This document shows, piece after piece, positions 24,605 to 54,644 of a DNA stretch of 64,000 nucleotides. The stretch comes from Gammaproteobacteria bacterium (GTDB lineage Bacteria > Pseudomonadota > Gammaproteobacteria > Ga0077536): positions 384,001-448,000 of the forward strand of contig CAXXLL010000003.1 in the NCBI GenBank assembly GCA_963662545.2. The letters run 5' to 3'. A program made the position numbers and the translations under genes. Within the stretch, counting starts at the first letter, position 1. Each line of letters starts with the position of its first letter. The notes under the pieces are model-generated. The model had not been told where the DNA came from and did no database searches. It saw nothing but the letters and a program-made list of their open reading frames with translations.

Positions 24605-25372
24605 CTACTGCCTGGTCTGACCGGCTGCCTCGTCACTTGCCGCCGTCCCGGCCAGCCCCATCAGGCGGTCGATATTAGACAGCGAATGCATGTGCCGATA
24701 GATCAGATCCAGATAATCCTTGTCGAGCAACTCCTTCAATTTTTCCGCGGAAAGGGTCTTTAGCTTCTCGCGCGTTACCGCGAAAAAACCCGACAGGGAA
24801 AAGCTCTCTCCCGAGTTCAGCGAAATGTTGGCCTGCATCGAATCCAACAATCCAGCCTCATCGATCATGCCACAGAAGTGGCTGGTGATGAGCGTGTGAT
24901 TATGGAAGTCCTGTAGGAATTTAACAGAGTTTGACAATAGATCTCCGTGTTCACCGTCGTCGGTAATCAACTGCTGGCCTTCCTGCGCGGTGTTGAAACC
25001 TGAATAGGCTTCATCGATACAAACCGTGAATTCTTCGCTTTCCTCCGATGCCCGGGCCAGTATGAATGGATACCGGCGCACATAAGCCGGCACGTAATTC
25101 GCGCGCCAACTGCCGCGCTCGTCAATCATAAGATTTTGATCGCGTTTCAATCCCAGTACGACTGCGGGAATCGCCTTGCCGTCGCCGGCGCGCGCGAACA
25201 CGATTGCGTATTCGCGCGCCGCGATCGCGAACTCACTGGCGGCGATGAATACCGAGTTGCTGTTGGCCGCGAACGAGTAGCCCTGGTCGGCGTCGACGAA
25301 CCAACCCTTGTGACGCTCGCGGCTCAGTGCCACGACGTTCCGATAAAACATCGGGAGCTGCGGATCGGGCAT
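24605..25372 (-). CDS. SapC family protein
   Basis: YVPAYVRRYPF motif; starts 2 bp after the tpsA stop. Confidence 0.9.
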   Translation of the reverse strand: MPDPQLPMFYRNVVALSRERHKGWFVDADQGYSFAANSNSVFIAASEFAIAAREYAIVFARAGDGKAIPAVVLGLKRDQNLMIDERGSWRANYVPAYVRRYPFILARASEESEEFTVCIDEAYSGFNTAQEGQQLITDDGEHGDLLSNSVKFLQDFHNHTLITSHFCGMIDEAGLLDSMQANISLNSGESFSLSGFFAVTREKLKTLSAEKLKELLDKDYLDLIYRHMHSLSNIDRLMGLAGTAASDEAAGQTRQ

Positions 25373-28300
25373 TGTCAGAAGCGCCGGTGCAGGGTCGGCA
25401 ATACGACAGCTCCCTGCCACTCGACGTTGCCGAAGCGATCGAGGCGCACGGCGCCCGCGAACTCATTGACGCGGTCGCGCTTCATGAGATCGTTCGTCAG
25501 CGAATCGTCCAGCTCCTCTTCGAATTCCTCAAAATCGGAATCGTCGAACACGGGCTCCTCATCGAGGTCGATTGTCTCGGGCTCGGGCGTCACCTCCGGC
25601 GTCGTTTCGACGGCGGCCGGCTCTTCGAGGGTCTCGAGAGCTTCGTCGATATCCTCGAATTCGTCCGCGGGTATTTCCGCTTCGATGTCGGCCGGCTGTT
25701 CGATCGGCTCGAACTCCGGAATTTCCTCGACCGGCTCCACTTCGACGGGCTCCAGGACTTCTTCGGCCTCGAAAACGTCGTCGAAATCGAAGCCGGCGTC
25801 ATCGCCGAATTCCAAGGCCTCTTGGCGCGCGTTGTACTCGGCAAGCTGTACCCGGTATTGCTCGAAGTTCGCGAGCTCAATCTGCAGGCGCTCCTTCAAG
25901 TTCTGGGCTTCGGCCAGATCGATCGCGTCTGCCGCCACTTCCTGATCGAGAAATTCGATACGCCGCTTGATCTCGACGATAAACGCTTCGAGCTCTTCCT
26001 CGGTGACCGTAGGCGCGCACCCCTCGGCCTCTTCGCATTGCTCGAGCGACTGGGCGATGCCCTCGCCGATGATGCCAAAGAGGGTGAGTTCCTCCTCAAA
26101 GGCCGAGGAGTCGAGGAAGAAGAGGCGCAGGATCGTCAGCACGGCGGCCGGGTTGAAGATCGACACCGTGGTCTGGGCGGTACCCGTGACACTGCTGAAT
26201 GAGCCGCCGGCTTGTATCAAATCCGCTATACCCTGCAGGATACTCAAGGAATCCGTGTTGATGCCGGAGTTCGTATTAGCGTTCGACTGCACGTTGAAAC
26301 TGACGTTACTGTCTGCGGTTGAACTCTGGGTCAACAGGATCGGGCCGTTAGCGAGATCGAGGATGATGTTGTCAGAGTTTTCGACGGCGTCCGTTGCTGC
26401 GAACAAGGCGGCGCCGCCCCTGATCGTTATCGTGTCGTTGTCGGGCGCACGGATAAATCCGGTCGCTGCGTCAGCGCCGAGTCCGTCGTTCGCAGCCACG
26501 AGTTGATCGCCGAGCGCGATCAAGGCCACATCGCCCTGCCCTGCCGCGCCCGCCGCCACGACGATATCGGTCAGGACAGTGGTTGGGGCGAAATCGATAT
26601 TGCTGCCGATTATGAGGATATTGCCGCCTGTCTCAAAAGGCTCCGCGATGGTAATCTGATCAGCGTTCGGCGCCACGCCTGCTGGGGTCGAAGTGAGCGA
26701 AAGCACCTGGCCGTCGAATACGGGTGTGGCCGTAGTCCCGGGCACGAATTCGGCGCCAATAGACAGGAAGCCGAGGAAGCCGCCGAACTTGTTTGCCGAT
26801 ATGTGTCCGGCACCGTCGGTGAGGTCGATGAAAATGTCCCGGGGTACCGTCGTCGGTACGATGTTCAATACGTCCGCCGTCCCGGACGTGACCTGATTAT
26901 TGAAATCCCAGATGTCCGTCGATGACGACAACAGCACGTTGCCGCTGAAGTTGGTCACGCCGTTGAAAACAAGGTTGGCACCAGATAGATCGCCGCCGAG
27001 TTGTGTCGCGCCGCCGTAGGTTTGATTGCCTGTCGACGTGGCGTCACCGGTGATGCTGACCGCGTTATTGAACGTCAAGGCGCCAACGGTTGCGGTTACG
27101 TCACCATTGATGAAGGTCGTACCGGCGTAGTTTTGACTGCCGCCGGAGGTCACGCTGAGATAGTTCGCCGTTCCCCCGCCCCCTGAGCCTGAGCTGAACG
27201 TTCCGTCGACCGTCAGCGGCCCGGTGAGATTGATACCGCCGCCCGTCGCGGCGATTGCCAGGTTGCCGGTAGCGTCTGGTGGAGATGCGGGGCCGATAAC
27301 ACCGTTGACTGCGTTGATGCGCAAACCGAGCGCTCCGACGATGAACCCGGTCGACGTGGCGCCGATATTAGTGTTGGCAGTCAGTGTGACCTGAGGCGCA
27401 GTAAAGGTACCGCCGATGCTGAATCCCGTATTAGGCATATCCAGCACGCTATTGGCTGTCGCGGTCAGATTCTCGACGCCGGTAAACCGAACCCGGGCAA
27501 GCGTGTTGCCCGGATCGCGCACGAACCCGGCGTTGTTCCCATCGATCAACCAGTCGGCGGCCACCTGCGAAATGATGGTATCGCTGCCGGCGCCCAGGTT
27601 GAGTTGGTTTGCATCGGTCGTATCGGTGGGTGCCACCGTCAGCGTTATGACGTCGGCGCCCGCGCCGGTATTCAAAATTTCTATTTCAAAGAAGCCCGTA
27701 CCCGTAAAACTGTTGGTGGCACTGGTCAGGCTGGCCGGCGCAATCGACGTGATCTCCGCGGTTACCGCGGTCGCCGTGTTGATCGTATCCGAGCCCGGAC
27801 CGCCCATAATCGACCCGCCCCAGGCCGCCGCGAAATTGAACGTATCGGCGCCGGCATCGGTGAAGGTTCCACCGCCGATATTGGAGTCGATATCAGTAAT
27901 GTTCAACAGTTGTGTGACGCGCGCGCCGGTCGGCGTCGTGGCGTCGACTTGCATCGCGCCTTCGATATCGAAAATGTCATTACCGATGGAGCCCATAAGG
28001 AAGTTGCCGGTCACGAACCCACCGCCGTTGAAGCCCGTGATCGTGCCTACCGGGGCCAATGGGTCTCCCCTGAGCTGCCCGGTCACGTCGAAGATTACGT
28101 AATCGTCGCCACCTTGAGCCTGAATGTTGAAAGCGGTGAAGTTGTTGGTCGCGATCGCGGCCAGTGTCGGGCCGTAAGTCCCGGTATCCTGACTGGTGAT
28201 ATGCCAGTACGTATCGCCTGGTCCGGGCGGTCCGATGAGCGTTCCCAGACTATTGCCGATGAAGTTGTTTACACCGGCAAATCCGTTTGCCGGAGAGGGT

Positions 28301-28979
28301 CCGATCAAATCCGGGGGCGCGGAAAAGCCGCCAATGGTGCCACTTTGTTCACCGAGCACGACAGTGTTGATCTCCAACAACTGCACGAGGGACGAACCGC
28401 TGTAATCGATGGTGTCGCTGCCGGCGCCGAGATCGACCGAGCCGACGAGGGTCGATGTGTCGGCTCCCGGGGGGGAGCCTGTCGGCGTGCCGAACTGGAC
28501 TTCATCATTATCCGCACCACCGTCGATCACGACCGTGGTCCCGGAGGGTGTCGACAAGACCGAGTTGCCGGTGATCTTGAAGGTGTCATTGCCGGCATTG
28601 CCGATCAGTTGATTAACGCTGAAACTGACGTTGACGTTGAAGGTGTCGTCATTGCCGGCGCCATCGGCATTTCCGCTTAACGAACCGCCGTTGAAATTAA
28701 ACGTGTCCATTCCCGCCGAACCGGTCAGGTTTTCTATATTTTGCCAGGTTGTGACGGACGCTGAGCCGCCGCTATTCGGGCCCGTGACCGTATAAACCGT
28801 GTCCCCGGTCAGCAGATCGCCCGCCCCATGGCCCAGACCGTCCATCGTGCCCGAGAGACTCCCCGCGCCCGCGTTCACCGTAAACACGTCGTCGCCGCCC
28901 GTCCCCGACAGGTTCTCAATCTCAGCGAAGCCGCCCGAGACCTCGCCCGAGGTGCCCAAATCACCGCCCGTTAACGTGT

Positions 28980-31900
28980 AGTCGTTACTGCCTATCAGCG
29001 TGTCATTGTCCGTGCTGCTGCCCGCACCCGAGCCACCGTTGATCGCACCGGTCAGCGTGAACGTCGCGAGATTGAAGGTATCCGCCGCGTCACCGCCTAA
29101 GAGGTTCGCCGCACTCGCGCTCCCCGCCAGGGTGAAGCTGTCATCCCCATTCAAGCCACTCGCGTCGCCCGTCAGCACCGAGCCCGCGTTGAATGTGAAA
29201 CTGTCCGCTGCCGCCGTCCCCGTCAGGTTCTCAACCTCCGCAAAGCCACCCGAGACGTTCGTCGAGGTGCCCGTGTCCGTGCCCGTGCCCGTGACGATGT
29301 AGTTGTTGCTGCCTGTCAGCGTGTCGTTGTCCGTACTGCTGCCCGCACCCGAGCCACCGTTGATCGCACCCGTCAGCGTGAACGTCGCGAGATTGAAGGT
29401 ATCCGCCGCGTCACCGCCCAACAGGTTCGCCGCGCTCGCACTCCCCGCCAGGGTGAAACTGTCGTCGCCGTTCAAACCGCTCGCATCGCCTGTCAACACC
29501 GAGCCCGCGTTGAACGTGAAACTGTCCGCTGCCGCCGTCCCCGTCAGGTTCTCAACCTCCGCAAAGCCGCCCGAGACGTTCGTCGTCGTACCCGTGTCCA
29601 TGCCCGTGACGATGTAGTTGTTGCTGCCTGTCAGCGTGTCGTTGTCCGTACTGCTGCCCGCACCCGAGCCGCCGTTGATCGCACCCGTCAGCGTGAACGT
29701 CGCGAGATTGAAGGTATCCGCCGCGTCACCGCCTAAGAGGTTCGCCGCACTCGCGCTCCCCGCCAGGGTGAAGCTGTCATCCCCATTCAAGCCACTCGCG
29801 TCGCCCGTCAGCACCGAGCCCGCGTTGAATGTGAAACTGTCCGCTGCCGCCGTCCCCGTCAGGTTCTCAACCTCCGCAAAGCCACCCGAGACGTTCGTCG
29901 AGGTGCCCGTGTCCGTGCCCGTGACGATGTAGTTGTTGCTGCCTGTCAGCGTGTCGTTGTCCGTACTGCTGCCCGCACCCGAGCCACCGTTGATCGCACC
30001 CGTCAGCGTGAACGTCGCGAGATTGAAGGTATCCGCCGCGTCACCGCCCAACAGGTTCGCCGCGCTCGCACTCCCCGCCAGGGTGAAACTGTCGTCGCCG
30101 TCCAGGCCGCTCGCGTCGCCCGTCAGCACCGAGCCTCCGTTGAACGTGAAACTGTCCGCACCCGAGGTCCCCGTCAGGTTCTCGATGCCCTGCCAGCCGG
30201 CTGCCATGCCGCCGTTTATATCGGGTGAAGTGCCCACACCCGAACCGGTAATAACGTAAGTACCGCTGCCCTGCAGGGTATCCGTATCAACGCCTCCCCC
30301 GATCGTGCCGGTCCAATTGCTGGCCGCGACGTTGAAGATGTTTACGTCGCTTCCGGCGCCGTCAAAGGTACCGCCTACGGTCAGATCGCCGGCAAGCGCA
30401 TCAATATTGTTGATCGTGGTGAACGACGCGGTGCCACCGTTACCGCCGACATCGACGGTGATATTAAGTGCCGTCAATCCAGTAATCGTAAACGTGTCCG
30501 GATTAATGCTCCCCATGAGCGTGTTGACGCCCGTACTGCCGCCGCCGTCGGCGGCGTTGGTGAGCGCGCCGTCCGGTTCGAATATGAAGAGGTCCAAGGC
30601 GTCGCCGCCTTGGATGGCAATAATGCTCGAGAATTGCATCTGATCCGTTGTCGGCGAGTTACCGTTCAGGACGAAGTCCTCAAGTTCCTGCAGGCTCCGG
30701 GCGGCAACGACAGCATCCGTTCCGTTAATGAGCCAGTAGGTATCGACGGCGTTGCCGAAGGGCGAGATGGTGCCGCCCGACGCGTTGGGAATGAGGTCGG
30801 CGTCGTTCCAACCGCCGGAGATCAACGGCGGATCGCCAGCGATACCGACGAACGTTCCCGGTCCCGTATTCCAGGTGTTTTGAATCACCGAGCCGGAAAA
30901 GTCGATGACGTCGTCGTCGCCCGCCCCGCCTTCCCTGCCGCCTTCCAGCATACCCACGATGTGCGGCTTACCGTTGGTGAAATTGAAGGTATTGTCGTCG
31001 GTGGAGTCCATGGGGTTCGTGATGTCGAAACCGTAGACATCACCGGTGAAGGTCATCAGACCGCCGCCGCCGTTGAAATTGAAGGTATCGTTGTCGTCGC
31101 CGCCGAACAGGTTGGCGGCCGCTGTGGACGAAGTGGCTCCCGACCCGGTGATATTGAATATATCGTTACCGCCCAGCGCGCTGGCCGTACCGGCGAGTTC
31201 ACCGCCGGCGGTAAAGGTGAAGGTATCGACGCCCGCGGTGCCGGTGAGGTTCTCGATAGCCGTCCAGGCGTTCACGCCGCCGGATGATCCGGAAAACATC
31301 CCGCTGACGGCGTAGGACGTGTCGCCGGTCAAGAGATCGGCGACGCTCTCGCCGAGCCCATCGATGGTTCCGGACAGCGTACCGCCCACGGTGAAAACGT
31401 CATCGCCCGTCGTTCCGGTCAGATTTTCGATCTCGCTCCAGCCGCCGCTGACCTCACTCGAAGTGCCTGTGTCCGCGCCGGTGATCTGGTAGTCGTTACT
31501 GCCTACCAACGTGTCATTGTCCGTGCTGCTGCCCGCACCCGAGCCACCGTCGATCGCACCCGTCAACGTAAAGCCCGCCAGGGTGAAGGTATCCGCCGCG
31601 TCACCGCCCAACAGGTTCGCCGCACTCGCGCTGCCCGCCAGGGTGAAGCTGTCATCACCGTTCAAGCCACTCGCGTCGCCCGTCAGCACCGAGCCCGCGT
31701 TGAATGTGAAACTGTCCGCTGCCGCCGTCCCCGTCAGGTTCTCAACCTCCGCAAAGCCACCCGAGACGTTCGTCGACGTGCCGGTGTCCGTGCCCGTGAC
31801 GATGTAGTTGTTGCTGCCTGTCAGCGTGTCATTGTCCGTACTGCTGCCCGCACCCGAGCCGCCGTCGATCGCACCCGTCAACGTGAAGCCCGCCAGCGTG

Positions 31901-32380
31901 AATGTATCCGCCGCATCACCGCCCAACAGGTTCGCCGCACTCGCGCTCCCCGCCAGGGTGAAGCTGTCATCCCCATTCAAGCCACTCGCGTCACCCGTCA
32001 GCACCGAGCCTCCGTTGAACGTGAAACTGTCCGCTGCCGCCGTCCCCGTCAGGTTCTCAACCTCCGCAAAGCCACCCGAGACGTTCGTCGAGGTGCCGGT
32101 GTCCGTGCCCGTGACGATGTAGTTGTTGCTGCCTGTCAGCGTGTCATTGTCCGTACTGCTGCCCGCACCCGAGCCGCCGTCGATCGCACCCGTCAACGTG
32201 AACGTCGCGAGGTCGAAGGTATCCGCCGCGTCACCGCCCAGCAGGTTCACCACACTCGCGCTCCCCGCAAGCGTGAAAGTGTCGTCGCCGTCCATGCCGC
32301 TCGCGTCGCCCGTCAGCACGCTCCCTGCGTTGAACGTGAAACTGTCGGCAGCCGACGTGCCGGTCAGGTTCTCGATACCC
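28980..32380 (-). repeat. Two blocks of ~315-bp (105-aa) near-identical tandem repeats in tpsA
   Basis: Unit ...ENLTGTAAADSFTFNAGSVLTGDASGLNGDDSFTLAGSASAANLLGGDAADTF...; blocks ~28980-30190 and ~31490-32380. Confidence 0.9.
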
Positions 32381-35300
32381 TGCCACCCCGCCGCACCGCC
32401 GCCGTTGATATTGGTCGCGGTCCCCAGATCCGATCCGGTCACGGTGAAGTTGGTGTTGATCAGCGTATCCGTGCCGCCGCCGCCGTGGATGGTGCCGGTC
32501 CAAGAATTGCCATTGAGGTTGATGACGTCCGCACCGGTGTCAGTGAACGTTCCCCCGCCTGCGGTCGAATCGATATTTGCAATGCTCGTCAGTGCCGTCG
32601 TATTGGCGCCGACCATCACGTCGACCGAACTTGTGCCCATAATCGTGAAAAGGTCTGCCCCGATACTGCCCATGAGGATGTTGGTGTCCCCACCGCCGTC
32701 GATACCGCTGGTGATTTCCCCCGCGGCCTGAAAGATGAAAGTGTCCGCCGCGCTACCCGCCGAAATGCTGACGCCAATAAAGGGATTCGCAGCGATGGTA
32801 GCGAGGGAAGTACCCCAGGTGCCGGTATTCGTGCCGGTAATGTTCCAGAAAGTGATCGCGTTCGGGCCGCCGAAACCGGAAAGCCCGTTGTCGACGATCG
32901 TTTGGATGCTGGTAAATCCGGCCATGATTAGATCGGGGGTGCCGGTAATCGTGCCGTTACCGCCCGACGCGCTGACCGTCTGGGACAGGTCCGATCCGCT
33001 GAAATCGATCGTGTCGTTGGCCGCGGCGCCCGAAATCGAGCCAATCAAATGAGACCCTTCGCTTACGCCACCCGGGGGCGTTCCCGTTGGGATACCGAAA
33101 TTAAACGTGTCGGCGTTGCCTTCGCCCTCGAGGTTGGCCGTCAACGATGTATCGTTACCGCCGGATCGGGTGAGATTGAATACATCGTCTCCGCTGCCGC
33201 CTTTTATCGTTCCGAGGGTGATCGTCACGCCGGGAAAATTGAACGTGTCGACCTGCGCGTTACCCGTCAGGTTTTCGAACGCCGAAAAGCGCGTTCCTCC
33301 TGGAACCGTGACGTCATCTACCTGTTCAATGCCACCGTCGATGATCCAGGTGGACGCTTCGTTACGGCCGGCTAGCGTATCGTTCCCGCCGAGGCTGCCG
33401 ACGAATTCCTCGATACCGCTGACGGTGCCGGTCACGCCCGTGACCGTCGCGGTGGTCGCGCCGGTGGTCAAGGTCACGGTCACGTCCGCGTCGTTCTTCG
33501 TCGAATAGCTGAGCGTGTCGTCGGTACCGCCGCCGCCGTCGGTGATGGAACCGGCAATCGACCCGGAGTTGGCGAAATTGAACGTATCGTTACCGCCAGT
33601 GCCAATCAGGTTCTCGATGCCCGCCCAGGTGCCCGTTAGATTGTTCGCGGTACCCCCGTTCGCGGCGTTGACCGTATAACTGGTGTTGCCCGAGAAGGAG
33701 TCGCCGGTGTTGGAGCCGGAGATGATGGTCTCGATTTGATTGTAGGTAGCGGTCAACCCGGTCGCGATGGTGCCTGTGCCGGTGCCGGTCGCCGCGAAAT
33801 CGAGCTGCACGCTCAGGCCGGCGGCGTCGATGGTGTCGGTACTACCGGCACTGCCGCTGATGGTGACGCCGTCCGAATCGGAAATGATGACGTCGAGGTC
33901 GAGTTTATTGCTGGAGCTGGCGCCTTGCGTACCGAAAGTCACCGACAGTTGACCGGTCGTGACCGGCAGGGGATTGGTCTGGAAGGTGAGGTCCCCCGCG
34001 GACGACAAGGTGACGGTGTCCGACGCGACATTCGTGTAAGGCCCGGCCAGCGTGAGACTGGCGGTGCCGGTGGTGAGGATATTGATGATATCCGACTGCG
34101 CGTTCGCCGTGGTCAGGTCCTCGACCAGGAGATCGGTCGCCGATTCCATGAAGATGTCGCTGCCGGTCGCGCTGGCTTTGACCGCCGCGCCGTTGATAGC
34201 CGAAACCCCGAGGCGGTTACTGGTATCGACACCGATATCGCCGCCGGCGACGAGGATCAAGTCGTTAGCCGCAGCGTCTTTGGTGAGCACCGCGCCACCG
34301 TCGGTTATGTTGCCGCCGGCGTTGACGGTCTGATCCGCCGCGCCGCCGTCGAACGTGCCAACGCCCGCGCCGAACGTAATGTCGGTGCTCGCGGTGAGAT
34401 CGCCGGTCACGAAAAACTTGTCCGTGATCGTCAAGCTGCCCATCTGAATGTCGATGCTGCCGCCAATGTCGACGCCGTCGGTCCCGCCCGCGCCGCCGCC
34501 GCCGAGCGTGACGTTGCCGGCTACCGTCTTGGTAAAGCCGCCGATGATCAACTCGCCGCCTTCGGCGTCGAGCAGCTGGTTGGTACCGGACAAGGTCACC
34601 GCTACGATGCCGAGGTCGATATCGCCGCTGGCTGTCAAGTCGTTGGTGGCGGTGAAGGCATCCTGGATGGTCAGATTGCCGGCGTTGACGTCGATAGTGC
34701 CGTTCAGGACGATGGCGATATTGCCGCCGAGCGAAAGGCTGCCGGTATCGTTTTTGGTGATCGCATCGGTCGTCAGGGTGCCGGCGGTCGAATCGATGGT
34801 GTTGTCGCCGTTGCCCGCTATCAACAAGGTGATGCTGGTCAAGGTGATGTCGCCGCCCGCGCTGATGTCGCCGCCCGCGCCGAGATCGAGCGTGCCGACG
34901 CCGCCGGTCAGCGACCCGACCGTGACTGTCTGGTCGTTGACGTCGAGGATCGCGGTGTCGAACAGGGTCACTGCGCTGCTTGAGCTGAATCCAGTTCCCG
35001 AGCCGGCCTACAGGGTCCCCGTGTTGCGCACACTAGTGGTTCCGGTATAAGTGTTGGTGCCGGATAAAGTCAGCGTTCCGGAGCCCGTTTTGTTCAGCGC
35101 GACTGCGCCTGTAATATCGCCGGCAAAGGTGCTGGCGCCGTCACCAGAGAGAGTAGCGCCGCCGGTCGAGGTGATCACGCCGCCCGTGCCGCTGATAGTG
35201 GCGACGGTCTGGTCGCGGCCGACGAGATCGAAGATGCCGCCGTCGACCACCAGCGCGCTTCCCGCGTTGATTCGATCATTACCCGTTCCCAGGCTCAAGG

Positions 35301-35659
35301 TACCGGCCGACACCGTAGTCGTCCCGGTGTAGGTATTGACGGCATTCAGCACGACCGTCCCGGCGTCTTGCTTGTCGATGCCGAAGTTCGGACCGCTGAT
35401 GACGCCATTCAAGGTTAGCGTAGCAGCCGCGTCCGGATTCAGGATGCTATTTGCAGTTAGCGTGATACCGCCGTCGGCCACGGCTCCGGCGCCCTCCGCG
35501 CCAAGGGCACCGCCATTGAGCGTCAGGGCTTCATTATTAATGTCGACGTTGACGATCTCGAGTTCGGCGCCGAGCGCGACGATTGTGTCGTCCACCCCGA
35601 CACCTCCGGCCGATGTTCCAAGGGCCGCACCATTTAATACGCCCAATATGCCAGCATTG

Positions 35660-36400
35660 ATGAAAGTCTGACCGCTGTAGGTGTTCACGCCGGACAAGTC
35701 GAGCGCGTCGGCGCCAATCTTGGTCAGATCGAACGCGCCGCTGACGACACCGCTAATGAGCGGAAAGATTGTGGTGCCGCCGTTACCATCATCGGCGCTG
35801 ATGGTCGCGTTGGCCGTCAGCGTGATGTCGCCGCTCAGTTCTGCTGTTGTTGCTACCGTGGAGAAAAAAATCGCGCCCGCACCGCCAACACCAGCGCCGG
35901 CGATCGAGATGTCCTCCGCGCTGTTCAAGGCGGTGGCGGCGATGACCTCGAGCGTCGCGCCGCTTGCCACCACCGTGTCGTCGACGCCGACGCCGCCTAC
36001 ATTCGTGCCCAACGCATCGTTGTGCCGGAGGCCGAGCGTGCCGGCATTGATGAAGGTCTGACCGCTATAAGTGTTCATGCCCGTCAAGTCGAGCGTGTCG
36101 GCGCCAATCTTGGTCAGATCGAACGCGCCGCTCACGACACCGCTGATATTCGGAAGAATTGTGGTGCCGCCGTTACCATCATCGGCGCTGATGGTCGCAT
36201 TGGCCGTCAGCGTGATATCGCCGCTCAGTTCTGCTGTTGTTGCTACCGTGGAGAAAAAAATCGCGCCCGCACCGCCAACACCAGCGCCGGCGATCGAGAT
36301 GTCCTCCGCGCTGTTCAAGGCGGTGGCGGCGATGACCTCGAGCGTCGCGCCGCTTGCCACCACCGTGTCGTCGACGCCAGGCCCGCCTACATTCGTGCCG
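35660..36400 (-). repeat. 390-bp (130-aa) tandem duplication in tpsA
   Basis: VDDTVVASGATLEVIAATALNSAEDISIAG...FDLTKIGAD repeated. Confidence 0.88.
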
Positions 36401-38656
36401 AGCGCGTTGTCGTGCGTGATAGCAAGCGTGCCAACGGCAATCGTCGTCACGCCGCTGTAGGTGTTGGCCTGTGATAACGTCAAAGTACCGTTTTTCGTCA
36501 CCCGCGTCGTTTTTCGTCAGCGCGCCGCCGGTGCCCGCGAAGACGCCCATCTGCACGGCGGTACCGCCGGCAGCAACACCGATCGTCAAGGTACCGGCGC
36601 CGACATCGGCTGCTCCGATTGACGAAGCGCCGCTGCCGAGATTGAGCGTGAGGTCGCCGCCACCGGTGTTGATGGTGCCTCCCGTTATCAACGCTCCGGT
36701 CGGAGCCGTAGTTAGCGTGAAATCGCCGCCGGCAAGGTTGATGACGTCGGTCGAATCCTGGAACTCGATGTTCCCATTGGTGACTCCGACCCCGCCCCCG
36801 GTCGTCGTGAAGGTCAGGCTGCCCGAGCTGTTGAAAGGCAGGTTCACTACACCACCGGCCGTAGTTACTGTAGTAGCGGTGTCGACGTCGAGAAACCGGA
36901 TCCTGCCCGTCGCCGCGATGACCATATTGGCCGTTGCGCCTTCGGCAGCGATCGCCTCCCGGGTGATCGTGCTCGCGGTGTCGCCGTTGACCGTAGCCAG
37001 AAGACCGGTCGCGGTGACGCTCCCGTCAACGCTGCCGGTGCCATCGGTGTTGTCGTCGACATCGAGATCGCCGGGATCGAGCAGCAGCGTGCCGAGATGA
37101 CCGTTATCGGCGCTGAGATCGGAATGTCCCCGATAGACAAGGTTGTTCTTGCCGGATACCTCGGCAAAACCCCCGTCGCCGCCGGCTTCGCCACCACGTG
37201 CGGAGATCTGGCCATGAAAATGGGTCGTGTCGTCCGACCAAACGATGACTTTGCCGCCGTCCCCTTCATCAAGCGCATCCGCATTGATCGTCGCGTTAGC
37301 GCTGACGAAGGTAAGCGAAGCGTTGCGCACATCAGGATTTTTACCCTGGTAATCACCACCGACGAGCGCCTCGCCGCCGCCTGCCGTGCCGGAGACATTG
37401 ATCGCGGCGTCGTAATTGAGCTGCACGAAGTCACCGAGGATTGCCGCATCGCCACCCTTACCGCCGTCGCTACTGACGGCTGAGACGCGGCTGCCCTTAT
37501 CGAGCTGGGTCAGACCTTCGCTCTCGAGACGGATAGATCCGCCGTCGCCCTGTGTCGCGTCGGCGCGGATTACGCCCGAACTCGCGATATTCTCGCCGCG
37601 AATACCGATGCTGCCGCCGTCATCGCTCGACGTTCCCGCGGAAACGTTGATCACCCCGGTATTCAACACCGACGCGCGTGGCCCTAAGCCGACAAGCCGG
37701 ATAGTGCCGCCCGACTTGTCGATCCGCGCCGCATGAATGGTGCCGCCGTTGTTGATCGCGTTCTTGAACACGCCGTCCGCGGCGCTCGCCGTGATCAGTA
37801 CGTCGCCGCCCGCGGCGATGATGTCGCCAGTGTTGCTGATTTGATCGTCGAGCGACACCGCATTGTCGATGACTGCCTTGTCGACCGTGAACTTGAGCAG
37901 GCCATCGCCGTCGAAGTCGACCGTTACCTGTTCGCCCGCAACCAGATTGACGCGGCCTGCAGTCGCAATGATGACGCCTTGGTTCGCGATCGATTTACCC
38001 ACCAGGGTGACGTCGCCGCCGGGGTCGGCTTCGATGCGGCCTTCGTTAACGACCCGGCCCTGCGAGTTCTCGAGTGCTTCGAGTTTAAAATTGCCCGACA
38101 TGAAGTCGCCGACGCCGATCTGCATCGCGCCCGCGATCAAGCTCCCGACGTTCACCTGCGCGCCCGGCTTGAAGAAGACCCCGTTCGGGTTCATCAGAAC
38201 GACTTTTCCGTTGGCTTTAATCTGCCCGAAGATCTCGCTTGGTCTCTGATCGAAGATGCGATTGAGCGCCGAGGCCCTCGCGCTCGGCTGCTTGAACTGC
38301 ACGAGTTCGTTCTGGTAGACGTTGAAGGTTTGCCAGTCGATGGCTACGCGATGGCTGGTTTGATTGATCGTCGTGACCGACTTCGAGGCATTCTGCGTGA
38401 TGGTCGCGCTGCCGGCGGGCACGCCATTATGCATCGCCAACGCGCCGCCGGTCGGCGCGGCGAATGCGCTGCCGGCGTTCAGACCGATTAACAGCCCCGG
38501 CAGCAGGGCGAGCTGCACCGAGCGGGCCATCGGTGTGAGGCGGAACAAAGGTTCCGCCGGGCGATCGGATTGTCTGCTTCTACGCATCGTCATGCGTGTG
38601 CTCCCTTGACCGGCATCCGGGGTGAAATGCTCGCGGCCGTTGGTTGATTACGAGCC

Positions 38657-38699
38657 ATCTTATTTTCAGTTAGTTACGCGATCCGTGAACCATTTCACA
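38657..38699 (-). promoter_or_regulatory. Class II CRP-family-activated promoter of tpsA
   Basis: TGTGA-aatggt-TCACG (38699-38684) and -10 TAAGAT (38662-38657); spacing centres the box at -41.5. Confidence 0.65.
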
Positions 38700-40495: not shown

Positions 40496-40588
40496 GGGGA
40501 CTTATGCATTAAAATCAGCAGGGAAATAAAGTAGTTGATTATTCGAGGAAACTCCTATACCATAATAAGCAGGATATAGGAGACCTCC

Positions 40589-41533: not shown

Positions 41534-41650
41534 CGCTTTTAATCGATAGGAGTTAATACCTTGTAAAACTTGAAGTAGATGACGTCAATTCGTTGTCATA
41601 CACTTGCTAAAAACAAAAAGTTAGACTCGGCGCGGCAAAAGGAGAGGGAT

Positions 41651-41893
41651 ATGGACGCATTAGATAAAGATATTTCAGCGTTTGAAAAGATGCGCGAAAA
41701 CTTTGAAACCAATTACATGGGTAAATGGGTGCTGCTCCATGATGAGAAGATGATTGGGGCGTTCGATACGTTCAACGATGCAGCACACGAAGCAACTCAG
41801 AAATTTGGTAAGGGGCCTTATCTCATACGAGAGGTTGGCGTCAAAAATCAATCCTTGCCAGCTTCAGTACTGTACCAACAGATACATGCCTAG
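41651..41893 (+). CDS. Small DUF5678-like protein
   Basis: YMGKWVLLHDEKMIG...PYLIREVG; RBS; overlaps next gene. Confidence 0.65.
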   Translation: MDALDKDISAFEKMRENFETNYMGKWVLLHDEKMIGAFDTFNDAAHEATQKFGKGPYLIREVGVKNQSLPASVLYQQIHA

Positions 41894-42162
41894 TGTTAGC
41901 TGTGGCTTCGTCAGCACAAACGGGCACCAAGCACAAGATTCTCTTGTTGGTTACGGCCCTACTATATTGGTGGACGTTGGGTTTGACCCAAATTACGATC
42001 CAAATAAACCTGCTGCACTTCCAACAACGTTAATTCAGCAAGTTCATGCCGTTATAGATACTGGCGCGACAATTAGTTGTATCGATGCGAGCCTTGCCAC
42101 GCGGTTGGGGCTTCCTGTCGTCGATCGCTCAAATTTCGGTGGGATCAGTGGGAATTATCTAG
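41886..42162 (+). pseudogene. Retropepsin-like aspartic protease, truncated by IS
   Basis: AVIDTGATISCID; the C-terminal I/LLGxD motif is missing. Confidence 0.8.
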
Positions 42163-42166
42163 CTAG

Positions 42167-43861
42167 TGTCCGTCCATAAACAGGCATTTTCTTCGATGGG
42201 CACGGAGAAATCGAGGTGTTGAAAGTAGGTTGTTGGAGCGGTAGCGGCGGTTCGGTGGGGGTCGAAGGGCTCTTCGAGCGTAATTGTGAGTACGTTCGCC
42301 GGCCGCAGAGCGCTGCAACCCAAAGTCGCCCGTTCGACGATATCGAGGAGGTCAGTTAGTGCGAGTGAACGTCGCTATTCGAGTTGATAGCGCGCGAGCA
42401 GGCTGAGGTTGTAGGCGACCACAGAAGACCACACGTAGGCTTCGAAGTGCGGCAGGCTCTTCCAGGTGCAACGTGCCAATCCGTATGCACGCTTCAGGCA
42501 GGAGATACCGGCCTCGATGCCGGCGCGGAAGTTGCGCAAGCGTCGATAGACCCACTGACTCTTGACCATGTCGGCGATCGCGAGCCCGCGCTTCTTGTGG
42601 AAGGCAACGTCTTCGATGCCTTCTGCTTTCGCCGCCCGGAGATTGTCGAGGCTCGCATAGCCGCCATCGGCGGCGACCTGTCGTGGCATCGTCCCGTAGT
42701 GTGTTCGATGCCGTTCGAGCATCGGCATGAAGCGCTGACTATCGACCGGATTGCCTCGCTCGATGACCACGTCGAGGATGAGGCCACTGCGCCCCGAAGC
42801 CAGATTGATTTTGTGTCCGTACTGAACGTCGCGCGCACCCTTTATGATGATGTCGGTATGCGGCTCGAACAAGCTCACGCACTTCTCGCTCGCGGGGACC
42901 TTCTCACCGCCGAACACCCGCCGCTCAGTTTGCGAAATCACCTGCAGAACAAGTGTTTCGTAGTGCGCTACCTGCGCTAGCCAGTCCGGCAGTTCAACGC
43001 CGGTGACGCCCGGGCTCAGCAGCTGCTCACGTACCCTCGCTACCGCTTCCAAGGTTGAACGCGTCGCCCCAATCAAATCGCGATACAGACGTTGGCGTTG
43101 CTTCGCACCACGCGCATACCACAGCGCCCGCGCACGCTTCTTCGCCAATCGAGTGTGGTTCACGAAGCACAACTCCGGCGCGCCAGGCAACTCGCGCGCC
43201 TGTGCGAGCAGACGAACCACAACACGCACGCCATCCCACAGCAGATGACTGTCGCTCGGCGCGTGGATGGCACTGTCCGTTACCGTGCTATCAATCCGTA
43301 CACGCTGTGCCGGCTCAATGCGCGTCTCTTTCGCCGTCGCCAGCAGGGCGCGATGAATAGACTCCCACGTCGATACCTGGATCGCCGAGACCACCCGCTG
43401 TAAGGCAGACTTCTTCGGACGTTCATTACCCGGCAACCGGGCGAAGGCCTGAAAGCTCGCCGAGTCCTGCAGGTGAAAGGCCAGCTCCTCGTAACTCAAT
43501 TGCCGGTGCTGCTTGAGCACCGCGCAGCGCAGCACCGACTCCGCCGACAGTCCGCGTCGACCGGTGGGCTTCAAACCCCGCCGACACAGATCGTTCATGA
43601 CCGGCGTGAGGACCTTGGGGTGAGCATCGAGCCACTCGGACATGCCCTGCAGCTCTCGCCCCAGGTCATGGTCAGCAAACAGCTCGTATATACTCGCTTG
43701 GGCCGTGCGTTTCTGACGCATTCCCCCTCCTGTGGTGTCGATGATTGTGTGGAAAATCAGAGGTTTGAAGTTCCATTAGATCACGACCCACCGGAGGTTT
43801 CGATCCCTTAAGCGACAAATTTTCCTTTTTATTTCAACCGCATCGCGTTTAGGGATGCACA
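42167..43861 (-). mobile_element. ISNCY/IS5-like IS, copy 1 (transposase 42375-43721)
   Basis: IRs TGTCCGTCCATAAAC / TGTGCATCCCTAAAC; RIDST, ADGGY, RAGIEAGIS; flanked by CTAGCTAG. Confidence 0.9.
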
Positions 43862-43869
43862 CTAGCTAG

Positions 43870-45564
43870 TGTCCGTCCATAAACAGGCATTTTCTTCGAT
43901 GGGCACGGAGAAATCGAGGTGTTGAAAGTAGGTTGTTGGAGCGGTAGCGGCGGTTCGGTGGGGGTCGAAGGGCTCTTCGAGCGTAATTGTGAGTACGTTC
44001 GCCGGCCGCAGAGCGCTGCAACCCAAAGTCGCCCGTTCGACGATATCGAGGAGGTCAGTTAGTGCGAGTGAACGTCGCTATTCGAGTTGATAGCGCGCGA
44101 GCAGGCTGAGGTTGTAGGCGACCACAGAAGACCACACGTAGGCTTCGAAGTGCGGCAGGCTCTTCCAGGTGCAACGTGCCAATCCGTATGCACGCTTCAG
44201 GCAGGAGATACCGGCCTCGATGCCGGCGCGGAAGTTGCGCAAGCGTCGATAGACCCACTGACTCTTGACCATGTCGGCGATCGCGAGCCCGCGCTTCTTG
44301 TGGAAGGCAACGTCTTCGATGCCTTCTGCTTTCGCCGCCCGGAGATTGTCGAGGCTCGCATAGCCGCCATCGGCGGCGACCTGTCGTGGCATCGTCCCGT
44401 AGTGTGTTCGATGCCGTTCGAGCATCGGCATGAAGCGCTGACTATCGACCGGATTGCCTCGCTCGATGACCACGTCGAGGATGAGGCCACTGCGCCCCGA
44501 AGCCAGATTGATTTTGTGTCCGTACTGAACGTCGCGCGCACCCTTTATGATGATGTCGGTATGCGGCTCGAACAAGCTCACGCACTTCTCGCTCGCGGGG
44601 ACCTTCTCACCGCCGAACACCCGCCGCTCAGTTTGCGAAATCACCTGCAGAACAAGTGTTTCGTAGTGCGCTACCTGCGCTAGCCAGTCCGGCAGTTCAA
44701 CGCCGGTGACGCCCGGGCTCAGCAGCTGCTCACGTACCCTCGCTACCGCTTCCAAGGTTGAACGCGTCGCCCCAATCAAATCGCGATACAGACGTTGGCG
44801 TTGCTTCGCACCACGCGCATACCACAGCGCCCGCGCACGCTTCTTCGCCAATCGAGTGTGGTTCACGAAGCACAACTCCGGCGCGCCAGGCAACTCGCGC
44901 GCCTGTGCGAGCAGACGAACCACAACACGCACGCCATCCCACAGCAGATGACTGTCGCTCGGCGCGTGGATGGCACTGTCCGTTACCGTGCTATCAATCC
45001 GTACACGCTGTGCCGGCTCAATGCGCGTCTCTTTCGCCGTCGCCAGCAGGGCGCGATGAATAGACTCCCACGTCGATACCTGGATCGCCGAGACCACCCG
45101 CTGTAAGGCAGACTTCTTCGGACGTTCATTACCCGGCAACCGGGCGAAGGCCTGAAAGCTCGCCGAGTCCTGCAGGTGAAAGGCCAGCTCCTCGTAACTC
45201 AATTGCCGGTGCTGCTTGAGCACCGCGCAGCGCAGCACCGACTCCGCCGACAGTCCGCGTCGACCGGTGGGCTTCAAACCCCGCCGACACAGATCGTTCA
45301 TGACCGGCGTGAGGACCTTGGGGTGAGCATCGAGCCACTCGGACATGCCCTGCAGCTCTCGCCCCAGGTCATGGTCAGCAAACAGCTCGTATATACTCGC
45401 TTGGGCCGTGCGTTTCTGACGCATTCCCCCTCCTGTGGTGTCGATGATTGTGTGGAAAATCAGAGGTTTGAAGTTCCATTAGATCACGACCTACCGGAGG
45501 TTTCGATCCCTTAAGCGACAAATTTTCCTTTTTATTTCAACCGCATCGCGTTTAGGGATGCACA
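43870..45564 (-). mobile_element. Same IS, copy 2 in direct tandem (transposase 44078-45424)
   Basis: 1703-bp period; identical protein; C/T difference at 43789/45492. Confidence 0.9.
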
Positions 45565-45568
45565 CTAG

Positions 45569-45595
45569 CTAGAATTCTCAAGCTCGCGGCTCCTC
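45569..45595 (-). pseudogene. Probable orphaned start of tpsB
   Basis: GAGGAG-8 nt-TTG AGA ATT CTA G running into the IS, same strand as tpsB. Confidence 0.5.
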
Positions 45596-46033
45596 TTCCG
45601 TTACTGTATCAGGGCGGTAACAAAGGTCTCGCCGGCCTTTATCTACATCCCGGTGATGAAATGCGCCAAAAAATCGAAATGACGCCGTGGTTTATGCATC
45701 GAGTACCCAAATCCTCGGTGGGCCGTTGACAGTTCATGTGCCGGCGGCGAGCCGGTGAAAAACCGGGTTTTGTGCCAACCTGAGCACAATACCCCGGATA
45801 TTAGCCGGCAACGGTGGTCGAAAGTAAGCCTCGTGAAGGGTACCGGGCCGCGACTTGCGGCTATGGGCACGTTCCAGAAAACGACATTGTCCGAAGCGCT
45901 TATTGATGAAAAGTGACTTGTTACATAAACTTCAAGGTCCGCTGAACCATGGGCGAATAAGCGTGGGCGCGAAACGAGAAGCTCTGCCGATCCTCACGAG
46001 AAGCTCTGCCGAGGCAATCCCTGACGATCCCGT

Positions 46034-46933: not shown

Positions 46934-47038
46934 CGGCGTCTGACCCAGGCGCAGACCGGAGCTCGATGCGATCGCGTAAAGAATGCCTGAAGTGATTTGC
47001 ACCCAAATGCACCGTCCACCCACAACGACTTAGACTTG

Positions 47039-47767
47039 ATGAGCGATCAGCCCTTCACATGGCAGTCGTCGGGGATCACCGATGTCGGCAAAGTCAGAAA
47101 ACTGAACGAAGACTCGTTACTCGACCGCGGCAAGGATGGCCTGTGGGTCGTCGCCGACGGCATGGGCGGTCATTCGGCCGGCGATCTCGCGAGTCAACTC
47201 ATCGTCAATTCGCTTGAGAAGCTCGATCCGAGCGACGACCTGGCCGAATTCGTCGAACGCGTCGAGGACGCGGTGCTGGACGTCAATAATCGCCTTTACG
47301 AAGTCGCCAACGCACACAACCAAACCAGCGGCAGTACCGTGGTGGTGTTGCTGGCGCGAAGCCGGTACGCGGTCGTAATGTGGGCGGGCGACAGTCGGCT
47401 CTACCGCCTGCGCGACGGCCAAATCGCGAAGATGATGACCGATCATACTCAGATCGAACTCTATATCGAGAAAGGCCTGATGAACCGGGCAGAAGCCGAG
47501 GGGCATCCGTCGAACAATATGGTGACCCGTGCGGTCGGCGTTACCGAACACCTGTTGCTGGAAATGGACATGTTCGAAATTGAAGACGGCGATCGCTTCC
47601 TGCTCTGTTCGGATGGCCTCGATAAACACGTTAAGGATCCCGAAATCGGAGAAATTATGAGCTCGGGCGCGCCCGAGGAGATCACGCGCGCGCTCGTGGA
47701 CCTGACACTCGAACGCGGCGCCATGGATAATGTGACCGTTTGCTTGGTGGAAATGTCGGAGACGTGA
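47039..47767 (+). CDS. PP2C-family Ser/Thr phosphatase (PppA/Stp1-like)
   Basis: VRKLNED, VADGMGGH, GDSR, CSDGL, DN. Confidence 0.96.
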   Translation: MSDQPFTWQSSGITDVGKVRKLNEDSLLDRGKDGLWVVADGMGGHSAGDLASQLIVNSLEKLDPSDDLAEFVERVEDAVLDVNNRLYEVANAHNQTSGSTVVVLLARSRYAVVMWAGDSRLYRLRDGQIAKMMTDHTQIELYIEKGLMNRAEAEGHPSNNMVTRAVGVTEHLLLEMDMFEIEDGDRFLLCSDGLDKHVKDPEIGEIMSSGAPEEITRALVDLTLERGAMDNVTVCLVEMSET

Positions 47768-52958: not shown

Positions 52959-54644
52959 ATGAGCGTCGAGACACTTCGAGCACTGTCACGCGCCTACGCT
53001 GCGGGTGATATCGATCGCGAGTCCTATCGCCTGGAGCGGCGGACTTTGCTGGGCCGGATCGTCGCGGGCGAATTCCCCGTCATTCCTTTTTTAGCACCCG
53101 AGCCCGAATCGCCGACGGTCTTTCCCGACGATGATGACGAGGGTGACACCACCCAGGAAGTCATCCCCGGCATCGCGCAACTGCAGACGACGACGACGTC
53201 GCGCCAAAGTGGCGCGCCGATCATCCCGATCGCGATCGTCATCGCCGTTCTCGCCGCCGGCGTTATCGGCTGGCTCGCGACAGACAGCACCGGTGGCCCC
53301 GAGCCACAACCCGGGTCCGAACCTGAGCTCGCGCCGCGGGTCGACATACTGCTGGAATTTCTCGAGGAAAACTCCTGGGCGCCCGAGCGCATCGTGGGTT
53401 TAACGCGGGAATGGAGTCATCTCGCCCCAGCCGACCGCGACGAGTATGTAAAATCCAAATCGATGCGGCGGTTCACCGACGCCGTGTTCGAACAAATCAC
53501 CGCGGAAAGCGCCTTGATAGAACTCGGCGACGCCGAAGAGGCGCTCGACGCGCAGGAGCAGTTGCTCGATCTCTTCGATCATTTGGGTGTCTCCAACGAG
53601 CGCGTGATGCGCGCGCGTCAACGGTGGACCGAAACGCGCGAAGAAAAACTTGCCGTCGTAAGTCTCGAGCCGCCCGCACTCGCCGCAGCGGAAGCACCGG
53701 CGGAGGTCGCGGTCCCTGATGCACCGGCGGCGGCGGAGGTGCTGGAGGCGCCGCCGTCGAAGATCGAAACAGCGCCCGCATCCGAAGCTGTGACGGCACC
53801 GCCTGCCAAAGAAGAGACACCGCTCGCCACTGCGCCGGCTGCAACGAGGTCAGCGGAAACGGCGCCGCCCGCGGCCAAGTCACGGACCGTACGGAGCAAC
53901 TGCAAGGCGGAACTCGCAAAGCAGCGGCGTCCGTACTGCATGGATGTGCTCGCCTCGGGCGTCAAAGGCCCCGTAATGGTCGTACTGCCGAGCGGTAGTT
54001 TCGAAATGGGCGGCACGCGCGACGAGGAGATTCCCCGACATACCGTGATCTTCGAGGATCCCTTCGCAATGGGCATGTTCGAAATCAGCGTCGCCGAGCT
54101 CAACCAATACTGCGAAAATGCCGGCGCGAAATGCCCGGAACAGCCCTGGGACAACTCCGCTCTGCCTGCCGTCAACGTGTCCTGGGACCTGGCCCGTGCC
54201 TTCACGGATTGGCTGTCGGAGATCACCGGTGCTGAGTACCGCCTGCCCACGGAGCCCGAATGGGAATACGCCACGAGGGCCGGTACGACGACGACGTATC
54301 CGTTTGGTGAGGAGATCGTCCCGACGGATGCGCGCTATAGCTTCAAAAGCACCGAAACCGAGCCGCTGGCGACGAATGATCGCTCGGTCAACCGCAACGA
54401 TTTCCGCCTTTATCACATGCTCGGTAATGTGCGCGAATGGATGCTCGATACCTGGGCGCCGAATTACAAAGGTGCGCCATCCGACGGCAGCGCGCGCAGC
54501 ACGCCCGGCGTCGACGAACACGTCGTACGCGGTGGATCGTACGCCGATCGCGCCAATGCCTTGCGCTCGGCGGCGCGCCTGCCGCAGACGGCGTCACGAG
54601 GCGATCGCTATACGGGATTTCGCGTCGTACGCGTCATCAATTAG
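52959..54644 (+). CDS. Membrane-anchored FGE/SUMF1-domain protein (TagR-like)
   Basis: SHOCT-like N-terminus, TM, Ala/Pro linker, RLPTEPEWEYA, GNVREW, GFRVV. Confidence 0.92.
   Translation: MSVETLRALSRAYAAGDIDRESYRLERRTLLGRIVAGEFPVIPFLAPEPESPTVFPDDDDEGDTTQEVIPGIAQLQTTTTSRQSGAPIIPIAIVIAVLAAGVIGWLATDSTGGPEPQPGSEPELAPRVDILLEFLEENSWAPERIVGLTREWSHLAPADRDEYVKSKSMRRFTDAVFEQITAESALIELGDAEEALDAQEQLLDLFDHLGVSNERVMRARQRWTETREEKLAVVSLEPPALAAAEAPAEVAVPDAPAAAEVLEAPPSKIETAPASEAVTAPPAKEETPLATAPAATRSAETAPPAAKSRTVRSNCKAELAKQRRPYCMDVLASGVKGPVMVVLPSGSFEMGGTRDEEIPRHTVIFEDPFAMGMFEISVAELNQYCENAGAKCPEQPWDNSALPAVNVSWDLARAFTDWLSEITGAEYRLPTEPEWEYATRAGTTTTYPFGEEIVPTDARYSFKSTETEPLATNDRSVNRNDFRLYHMLGNVREWMLDTWAPNYKGAPSDGSARSTPGVDEHVVRGGSYADRANALRSAARLPQTASRGDRYTGFRVVRVIN

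Follow-up and report, generated by a model that had tools for sequence, protein, structure and literature searches.

The 64,000-nt stretch examined here (positions 384,001 to 448,000 of contig CAXXLL010000003.1, a gammaproteobacterial genome assembly; "the window" denotes this whole stretch) contains a conserved signaling/secretion locus of uncultured Gammaproteobacteria, here in partial decay. One arm of the locus is a two-partner secretion (TPS) system comprising tpsB, the giant adhesin gene tpsA and sapC; the other encodes a class III adenylate cyclase fused to an FHA domain (cyclase-FHA), a PP2C phosphatase, a membrane Hanks-type Ser/Thr kinase that ends in an FGE-like domain, and a second FGE-like protein (FGE2). 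For relatives in which both arms are intact, we consider it probable, with modest confidence, that the arms form a single circuit leading from phosphothreonine through cyclic AMP (cAMP) and CRP to tpsA. A preliminary description of the window had proposed such a system, and all seven gene families together with the CRP-type box were found where it had placed them, both in the open reading frame (ORF) listing and by Pfam. That observation is confirmed with corrections, namely that the arms stand apart, tpsB is truncated and tpsA is split; tpsB-tpsA-sapC is indeed divergent from the cyclase arm, but the two do not adjoin directly, since ~5.4 kb of mobile DNA lies between them.

In the proposed circuit, the single-pass membrane kinase would sense a periplasmic signal, its large periplasmic part ending in the FGE-like domain, and the second, membrane-anchored FGE-like protein would probably assist in sensing. 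The activated kinase would phosphorylate threonines, most likely those of its own Thr-rich cytoplasmic linker or activation loop, whereupon the FHA domain of the soluble cyclase would bind the phosphothreonine, recruiting or dimerising the cyclase and raising cAMP levels; the PP2C phosphatase would reset the switch. Together with a Vfr-like CRP, the cAMP would then act on a class II promoter between tpsB and tpsA and increase transcription of tpsA and sapC. Comparison among genomes supplies the gene content and order, the residues, the box with its predicted geometry and the occurrence of the box where the cyclase is found, and we infer the coupling of kinase to FHA domain, the activation of the cyclase and the use by CRP of the cAMP that this particular cyclase would make.

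The conserved gene order is sapC, tpsA, tpsB and a peptidyl-prolyl isomerase (PPIase) gene and, divergently, cyclase-FHA, PP2C, kinase and FGE2, and it was found in at least five families. Orthologs of the cyclase were detected in 19 of the 24 genomes searched within the family, and around 20 cyclase orthologs tpsB lay divergently upstream in 9 and a long kinase gene downstream in 12. When one genome for each species was scanned, 43 loci were obtained, 21 of them at ≥73% cyclase identity, 21 at 40-47% and one at 22%. The order tpsB-PPIase / cyclase-PP2C-kinase was present in 16 of the 21 loci in the highest identity class; of the other five, one was a contig of 2.2 kb, three offered ≤2.1 kb of sequence upstream and one was a partial second copy; six of these 21 are the same places as loci already drawn from the family relatives. 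None of the 21 loci at 40-47% identity (some titled Steroidobacteraceae), nor the one at 22%, had any of the neighbours. The order seen in the window also recurred in eight genomes of other families (G034, G311, G517, G668, G417, G544, G687 and G634), and tpsA was a single ORF of 4579 aa in G019 and of 4083 aa in G013, with sapC after it in both. This neighbourhood survey bore out the expectation that the two arms would be syntenic elsewhere, in many genomes of several families.

Loci without TPS genes keep the PPIase gene, a Sel1-repeat gene and leuC beside the cyclase, and tpsB-tpsA-sapC and kinase-FGE2 are therefore two insertions flanking an older PPIase/cyclase-PP2C-ubiG core. The window carries Sel1, leuC and leuD genes on the far side of sapC, while ubiG and then a MupP/Gph-type phosphatase gene follow the FGE2 gene; with these last two, which are housekeeping genes, the system ends. 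Of 28 loci that extend 4 kb or more in both directions, 17 have both insertions and 9 have neither; 2 have just the kinase, and none has just the TPS. In five genomes lacking the kinase at the locus, the only matches elsewhere were kinase-domain matches of 31-39% identity, and TpsB orthologs were not found in G012, G007 or G004. A second kind of link, one of sapC and a giant repeat protein with the cyclase, is seen in G036 (L026, 10008-16192), where one strand carries the gene for a 1309-aa DUF5649-repeat protein, sapC, a 125-aa ORF and the cyclase-FHA gene.

The cyclase-FHA protein matched PF00211 at 66.8 bits (cut-off 21.9), which places it among the class III cyclases, and its catalytic domain aligned with the solved short class III cyclases 3mr7, Ma1120 (4wp9), Rv1264 and LipJ (2.3e-16 to 4.6e-09). 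These are its best catalytic-domain matches, but none of them has an FHA domain and their regulation differs. An FHA domain is attributed to the Synechocystis cyclase Cya1 (see below). Class III cyclases use a metal Asp pair, a Lys/Asp substrate pair and an Asn/Arg pair for the transition state, the Lys/Asp pair being of the adenylate type. All of the corresponding metal, substrate and transition-state residues (D14 and D58; K54 and D117; N120 and R124) aligned to those of the solved cyclases; K54, D58, D117, N120 and R124 were invariant in 14 cyclase orthologs and D14 was present in 13 of the 14. The residues for function being intact, the sequence suggests that the protein is competent for cAMP synthesis. 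The FHA domain matched PF00498 at 44 bits (cut-off 20.7) and has a phosphothreonine pocket whose residues (G217-R218, S232-R233-x-H235 and S251-T252-N253-G254-T255) were likewise invariant in the 14 orthologs. Upstream of the cyclase gene, 10 of 20 loci keep the promoter TTGATG-17-TAAACT along with the full spacer, and the element is 97% identical to that of G001, a genome of the same genus, although the flanks failed to align, a pattern that suggests an operator overlapping the cyclase promoter. Just before the cyclase start codon, at 45974-46012, stand two exact copies of a 17-nt direct repeat, ACGAGAAGCTCTGCCGA, spaced 22 nt apart; the repeat is only partly kept in G002, also of the same genus, and was not seen in other relatives.

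The kinase consists, in order, of a conserved N-terminal region of ~65 residues, a Thr-rich linker, the kinase domain, a hydrophobic span at residues 452-474, ~950 residues without a Pfam match and the C-terminal FGE-like domain. Its linker (residues 66-170) contains 14 Thr and 2-4 copies of an [RK]-T-x-hydrophobic motif. Across 13 kinase orthologs, K207, H304-S305-D306 and D324-F325-G326 were invariant, as were T82 and T342, with T90 nearly so. A hydrophobic span was also present in FGE2 (residues 88-107), and, with topology read from the sequence by eye, both FGE-like domains should be periplasmic. PF03781 matched the C-terminus of the kinase as well as the following gene, so that a periplasmic FGE-fold partner is encoded here at the level of the family; the best solved match of the second FGE-like domain was PvdO (5hha, 4.1e-27). 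The catalytic cysteines of true FGE enzymes sit after the RGGS/RGGA motif. Neither FGE-like domain has a Cys pair beyond this conserved motif, and that of the kinase is predicted to be non-catalytic. Complex prediction between the kinase FGE-like domain (1420-1634) and FGE2 (310-561) gave scores of 0.00 and 0.00, which we counted neither way.

One alternative is that the kinase and phosphatase act directly on TPS secretion or on the envelope through phosphorylation of other proteins, with the FHA domain of the cyclase serving as an autoinhibitory or scaffold domain uncoupled from this kinase. The kinase type does occur with PP2C alone and with no FHA protein nearby, in G105, G686, G542 and G036, but the canonical phosphothreonine-pocket residues are invariant, the cyclase, PP2C and kinase genes are co-directional with gaps of only 63 and 266 nt, and all 24 cyclase-adjacent kinases fell into one starred group of a quick kinase-domain tree. 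We regard this alternative as very improbable.

The proposed circuit requires a cAMP-responsive promoter ahead of tpsA. The sequence TGTGAAATGGTTCACG, located 13 nt past the tpsB stop and ahead of the tpsA start at 38593, itself preceded by an AAGGGAG ribosome site, has 9 of the 10 positions of the CRP consensus. Since the genome contains 67 CRP sites of ≥9/10 in 5.58 Mb, nine of them perfect, ~0.0014 sites would be expected in the 120-nt spacer. Class II CRP promoters have a box centred near -41.5, and if TAAGAT is taken as the -10 element, the box centre lies at -41.5 and predicts both a class II CRP promoter and its start site. A box of ≥8/10 was present in the tpsB-tpsA spacer of 13 of 20 window-type loci and of 4 among five further loci from other families, the latter scoring 9 or 10, which gives 17 of 25 for all window-type loci with a divergent cyclase. 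In the alignment the boxes all fall at one place, with central bases that vary, and 11 of 19 loci of the first set, plus three more, have a TAnnnT hexamer 20-22 nt farther downstream. By comparison, none of five loci that have tpsB-tpsA but lack the cyclase, or have it elsewhere, carried a box (best score 6 or 7); two of these are T6SS-type loci (see below), two others lack a cyclase, and in the fifth the cyclase gene stands on the opposite side. The genomes are related and do not count as independent, but the pattern of boxes is still as a cAMP link would predict, and the box reported ahead of tpsA in the preliminary description is conserved across orthologs in this manner.

Two CRP proteins of the genome passed the 266-bit cut-off of the CRP equivalog NF008732, with 333 and 313 bits. 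Among solved structures both match Vfr best, E. coli CRP less well and Xanthomonas Clp much less well, and their recognition helices were near-identical to that of Vfr; both are predicted cAMP-binding CRP proteins with an RE..R helix. Of 41 relatives searched, 28 have the equivalog, among them all those that bear a TPS. Two further CRP-type boxes occur in the window, at 8159-8174 and 6111-6126, one perfect (TGTGACGGCCGTCACA) and one scoring 9/10.

Known systems offer precedents for both halves of the proposed circuit. cAMP-Vfr directly activates the exlBA two-partner system, with a TGTGA-type site at the promoter (PMC7049718, accessible part of the text). The window resembles exlBA in having a CRP-family activator and cAMP at a TPS promoter, with CRP proteins that match Vfr best, but the box here lies between tpsB and tpsA and not upstream of the operon, and the proposed cAMP source would be a dedicated, kinase-gated cyclase next door. 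In Synechocystis, Cya1-cAMP-Sycrp1 controls a surface adhesin/chaperone-usher operon with a canonical CRP box upstream (bioRxiv 10.1101/130278, accessible part); there, too, a cyclase, a CRP and a CRP box upstream of surface adhesion genes are combined, but the secretion system, phylum and domain order differ, and the accessible part of that source describes no adjacent kinase/phosphatase set. Kinases with FGE/DUF323 domains were noted in 2005 (PMC1262709, accessible part). The locus combines known kinds of control, a threonine phosphorylation pathway and cAMP-CRP regulation of TPS, and our literature search, which covered the journals in part, found no description of a kinase-controlled FHA-fused cyclase. 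Hanks-type kinase signaling and cAMP signaling are usually treated apart in bacteria, and an FHA-fused cyclase of the kind found beside a PP2C phosphatase in many Pseudomonadota would bridge them directly. In one clade the cyclase-FHA also sits by a dedicated receptor kinase. Comparison of genomes yields a concrete circuit with a predicted promoter target.

The closest likeness by domain make-up is to the P. aeruginosa H1 type VI secretion system (T6SS) pathway of TagQRST, PpkA, PppA and Fha1. Common to the two are a membrane Hanks kinase with a PP2C phosphatase encoded beside it, an FHA reader and a periplasmic FGE-fold helper. The locus differs from the H1-T6SS pathway in that an adenylate cyclase takes the place of a TagH/Fha scaffold as reader and the kinase itself ends in the FGE-like domain, with no vWA domain by Pfam; a second messenger and transcription, instead of machine assembly, would be the presumed output. 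No TagH/Fha-type reader with a T6SS_FHA_C domain was found at the locus, whose only FHA protein is the cyclase fusion. The statement in the preliminary description that the window holds no T6SS core gene stands and can be extended, as neither TssC nor Hcp (PF05943, PF05638) was matched anywhere in the genome (96.85% complete); TssK, TssL and TssM likewise had no match in any window-type locus of the class sample described next.

The kinase type (kinase domain, membrane span, FGE-like end) was then viewed across 23 loci of the class. It was accompanied by cyclase-FHA and a divergent TPS in 7 of these, by a cyclase without TPS or in a rearranged setting in 4, by TPS without a cyclase in 2, and by PP2C alone in several (the four named above). 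In three genomes of two families it lay directly after TagH-TssK-TssL-TssM-PP2C, and these T6SS-linked kinases, at 33-38% identity, are more distant members of the same type. G173 (L092, 4666-19878) and G501 (L103), the two T6SS-type loci reaching far enough to show TPS genes, have the order TagH-TssK-TssL-TssM-PP2C-kinase-TpsB-TpsA on one strand and no cyclase, an order thus seen in two families; the TagH of the G173 cluster carries a T6SS_FHA_C domain, and its TpsA is at least 1866 aa long. In the kinase-domain tree the T6SS-linked kinases formed a group apart from the cyclase-adjacent ones, and a third group held two TPS-linked kinases, so that TPS accompanies the kinase type in three groups. 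The expectation that orthologs would lie outside T6SS clusters was correct for window-type loci, none of which has T6SS genes, but not for these distant kinase relatives. Similarly, the proposal that the locus was rewired from a T6SS-type module gains from the kinase relatives beside TagH but not from the PP2C/cyclase-FHA pair: PP2C was directly upstream of cyclase-FHA in all six loci taken from other families of the phylum, which marks the phosphatase-cyclase pair as an old unit, and because this pair is old and widespread without T6SS or TPS, the cyclase reader was not simply derived from a T6SS pathway. The T6SS-linked relatives support a shared module with exchanged readers, and the finding that the same type of receptor kinase serves T6SS clusters elsewhere makes reader exchange between modules approachable.

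These associations also suggest another reading, in which the TPS exoprotein would serve chiefly as an input, TpsA, TpsB, the kinase FGE-like domain and PP2C together forming a modular sensor of surface contact or envelope state whose FHA readers are swapped by lineage (TagH in one, cyclase-FHA feeding back on tpsA in another), with the box serving feedback only. The tpsB-tpsA genes adjoin the kinase type in 12 of the 23 class loci, in three arrangements (divergent from either the cyclase or PP2C, or downstream of the kinase in the same direction) and in three starred kinase groups, and G173 and G501 string the genes together without a cyclase; moreover, residues 127-359 of TagR are FGE-like and, in the accessible text of PMC13713981, are modelled as uniting the PpkA periplasmic domains, to which this FGE-like domain is proposed to bind. 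Contact of TpsA or TpsB with the kinase is, however, a supposition, the TPS proteins of the other arrangements are only 27-48% identical to those of the window and may reflect separate events of association, 11 of the 23 kinase loci have no TPS nearby, and the conserved CRP promoter before tpsA favours the TPS as a regulated output in the clade of the window. We consider a principal role as input unlikely.

Several observations nevertheless weigh against the phosphothreonine-to-tpsA circuit. Because TPS genes adjoin the kinase type without a cyclase in G173, G501, G406 and G524, the kinase-TPS link can do without cAMP, and since TPS genes occur with the kinase in three clades, the T6SS-linked one included, the adhesin may be an input too. 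The box is missing from 8 of the 25 window-type loci. Only three well-supported independent contrasts bear on the association of the two arms (sign test, p ≥0.25). The cyclase-FHA and PP2C genes are widespread without this kinase or TPS, full-length matches to the ~300-aa cyclase-FHA occurring in 63 of 301 sampled genomes and 30 of 168 genera of the phylum, in most cases with no such kinase. With 18 cyclase-domain matches in the genome, CRP need not respond to the cyclase of this locus, and of the three cyclase-FHA paralogs in the genome two have no kinase or phosphatase nearby. These last points, together with the insertion of tpsBA-sapC and kinase-FGE2 as separate events around an older core, would fit a reading in which the arms are neighbours without a private circuit, tpsA belonging to a global cAMP-CRP regulon and cyclase-FHA/PP2C serving other kinases and targets. 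Against such a reading, 26 of the 28 loci have either both insertions or neither, genomes without the kinase at the locus have no kinase or TpsB ortholog elsewhere, and the box is found only where the cyclase is divergently adjacent (17/25 versus 0/5); we think it improbable, somewhat more so than a sensory role of the adhesin. Finally, in the genome at hand the TPS arm has decayed, and the circuit would be unable to drive a working adhesin there. The interpretation of the preliminary description as a whole, a periplasmic signal converted into cAMP that drives adhesin transcription, is supported in part: it is strengthened by synteny, intact conserved residues, the geometry and distribution of the box and the two Vfr-like CRP proteins, and weakened by this decay and by a phosphatase-cyclase pair that is widespread without T6SS or TPS.

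The decay affects one half of the system. By its sequence the output arm is dead in this genome, the PPIase gene and the 5' end of tpsB having been replaced by insertion sequences (ISs) and tpsA bearing a nonsense codon, while the cyclase-FHA, PP2C, kinase and FGE2 genes are all intact; for this genome, the locus chiefly illustrates how one half of a system decays. TpsB with POTRA domain and ShlB barrel and TpsA with its N-terminal TPS domain establish membership in the two-partner family, but an exportable TpsB and one intact TpsA frame, as a working system would have, are both missing here. Between tpsB and the cyclase gene lie an IS1595-family element, a low-GC fragment, two tandem IS5-like copies and ~330 bp of unmatched DNA, where the only gene of the relatives encodes a membrane-anchored parvulin PPIase of ~330 aa on the tpsB strand; no ortholog of this PPIase was found anywhere in the genome. 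Homology of tpsB to G001 ends at 40480, and compared with its relatives the TpsB of the window has lost the first 55-60 residues, signal peptide included, its opening residues being foreign to them. The two IS5-like copies stand head to tail with ends overlapping by 8 bp around CTAGCTAG (repeat spacing 1703), each copy has terminal inverted repeats of 23-24 nt, and the first copy interrupts the retropepsin-like protease ORF of the low-GC fragment.

Contigs of four sequencing runs from four studies were aligned over 34900-41000. The unique contig ended at 40526 in all four runs and a higher-depth IS contig started there, which establishes the tpsB/IS junction as real. The in-frame TAG of tpsA (35008-35010) was present in the contigs of all four, with no other letter at that place. 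The 13 letters at 36487-36499, by contrast, were found in the window only and in none of the four run contigs (X1, X4, X5 and X7), one of which was otherwise identical to the window across 4165 bases. Because four runs lack these letters, the tpsA frameshift is an assembly error or a private variant, and an assembly error in this repeat-rich gene is likely. An earlier account of the frameshift as a 19-nt insertion was rejected, since the contigs of the four runs show a 13-letter difference at 36487. Runs labelled sponge metagenome held 0.20-0.40 of the sampled words, on which no habitat claim rests, and one RNA run held a 0.08 share.

The genus seems to shed the system piecewise and in three different ways: besides the losses in the window, the kinase ortholog of G001 (L009) has an in-frame TAG at codon 267, inside the kinase domain, and G002 retains only the cyclase and a 26-residue remnant of PP2C. 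Recoding of TAG, as an explanation for the in-frame TAGs of tpsA and of the G001 kinase, was rejected by a genome-wide stop count, in which single in-frame stops between long open stretches (TGA 167, TAG 79, TAA 68) followed the same pattern as ordinary stop use (TGA 2084, TAG 1008, TAA 905).

The C-terminal frame of tpsA contains 315-nt tandem repeats in 4.1 and 2.9 copies and had no Pfam or NCBIfam match; for the same part of TpsA the protein Atlas returned weak leads only, the best score being 0.84 against a mark of 0.9. SapC had no solved relative at E values up to 1. Coordinates of the features are collected in the table below.

Table. Features of the locus, with window positions and supporting matches.
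Feature	Position	Strand	Evidence or remark
sapC	24605..25420	(-)	Pfam SapC 4.7e-67; downstream of tpsA
tpsA, C-terminal open frame	25375..34971	(-)	3198 aa as listed; frame shared with the middle piece
tpsA, in-frame TAG	35008..35010	(-)	Terminates the N-terminal part of tpsA
tpsA, middle piece	35008..36501	(-)	PATR / autotransporter-type beta-strand repeats: Pfam PATR 2.8e-30, TIGR02601 2.3e-35
tpsA, 13 extra letters	36487..36499	(-)	Frame shift in the window sequence only
tpsA, N-terminal piece with TPS secretion domain	36179..38593	(-)	Pfam TPS 4.8e-33, TIGR01901 5.9e-22
-10-like hexamer TAAGAT	38657..38662	(-)	21 nt downstream of the CRP box
CRP-type box TGTGAAATGGTTCACG	38684..38699	(-)	Predicted centre -41.5
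tpsB, 5'-truncated	38713..40509	(-)	Pfam POTRA_2 and ShlB domains retained; native signal-peptide N-terminus lost
IS1595-family transposase gene	40589..41533	(+)	Pfam DDE_Tnp_IS1595 1.2e-42; at the place of the relatives' PPIase gene
Low-GC fragment	41579-42158		Small ORF and retropepsin-like aspartyl protease ORF
Two identical tandem IS5-like copies	42159..45572	(-)	42159-43869 and 43862-45572; Pfam DDE_Tnp_1, DUF772
Sigma-70-like promoter TTGATG-17-TAAACT	45903..45931	(+)	Upstream of the cyclase gene
Class III adenylate cyclase-FHA, 299 aa	46034..46933	(+)	Cyclase N-terminal, FHA C-terminal; Pfam
PP2C Ser/Thr phosphatase	46997..47767	(+)	Pfam PP2C_2; NF033484 (Stp1 type) 3.3e-59, below its cut-off
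Membrane Hanks-type Ser/Thr kinase, 1634 aa	48034..52938	(+)	Pkinase 173-398; FGE-sulfatase 1465-1629
Second membrane-anchored FGE-like protein, 561 aa	52959..54644	(+)	Pfam FGE-sulfatase 4e-42

Outside the system, a gene of the CptA-type membrane toxin family (PF07254) was noted at 57085-57513, upstream of the succinate dehydrogenase flavoprotein gene at 58642-60435.

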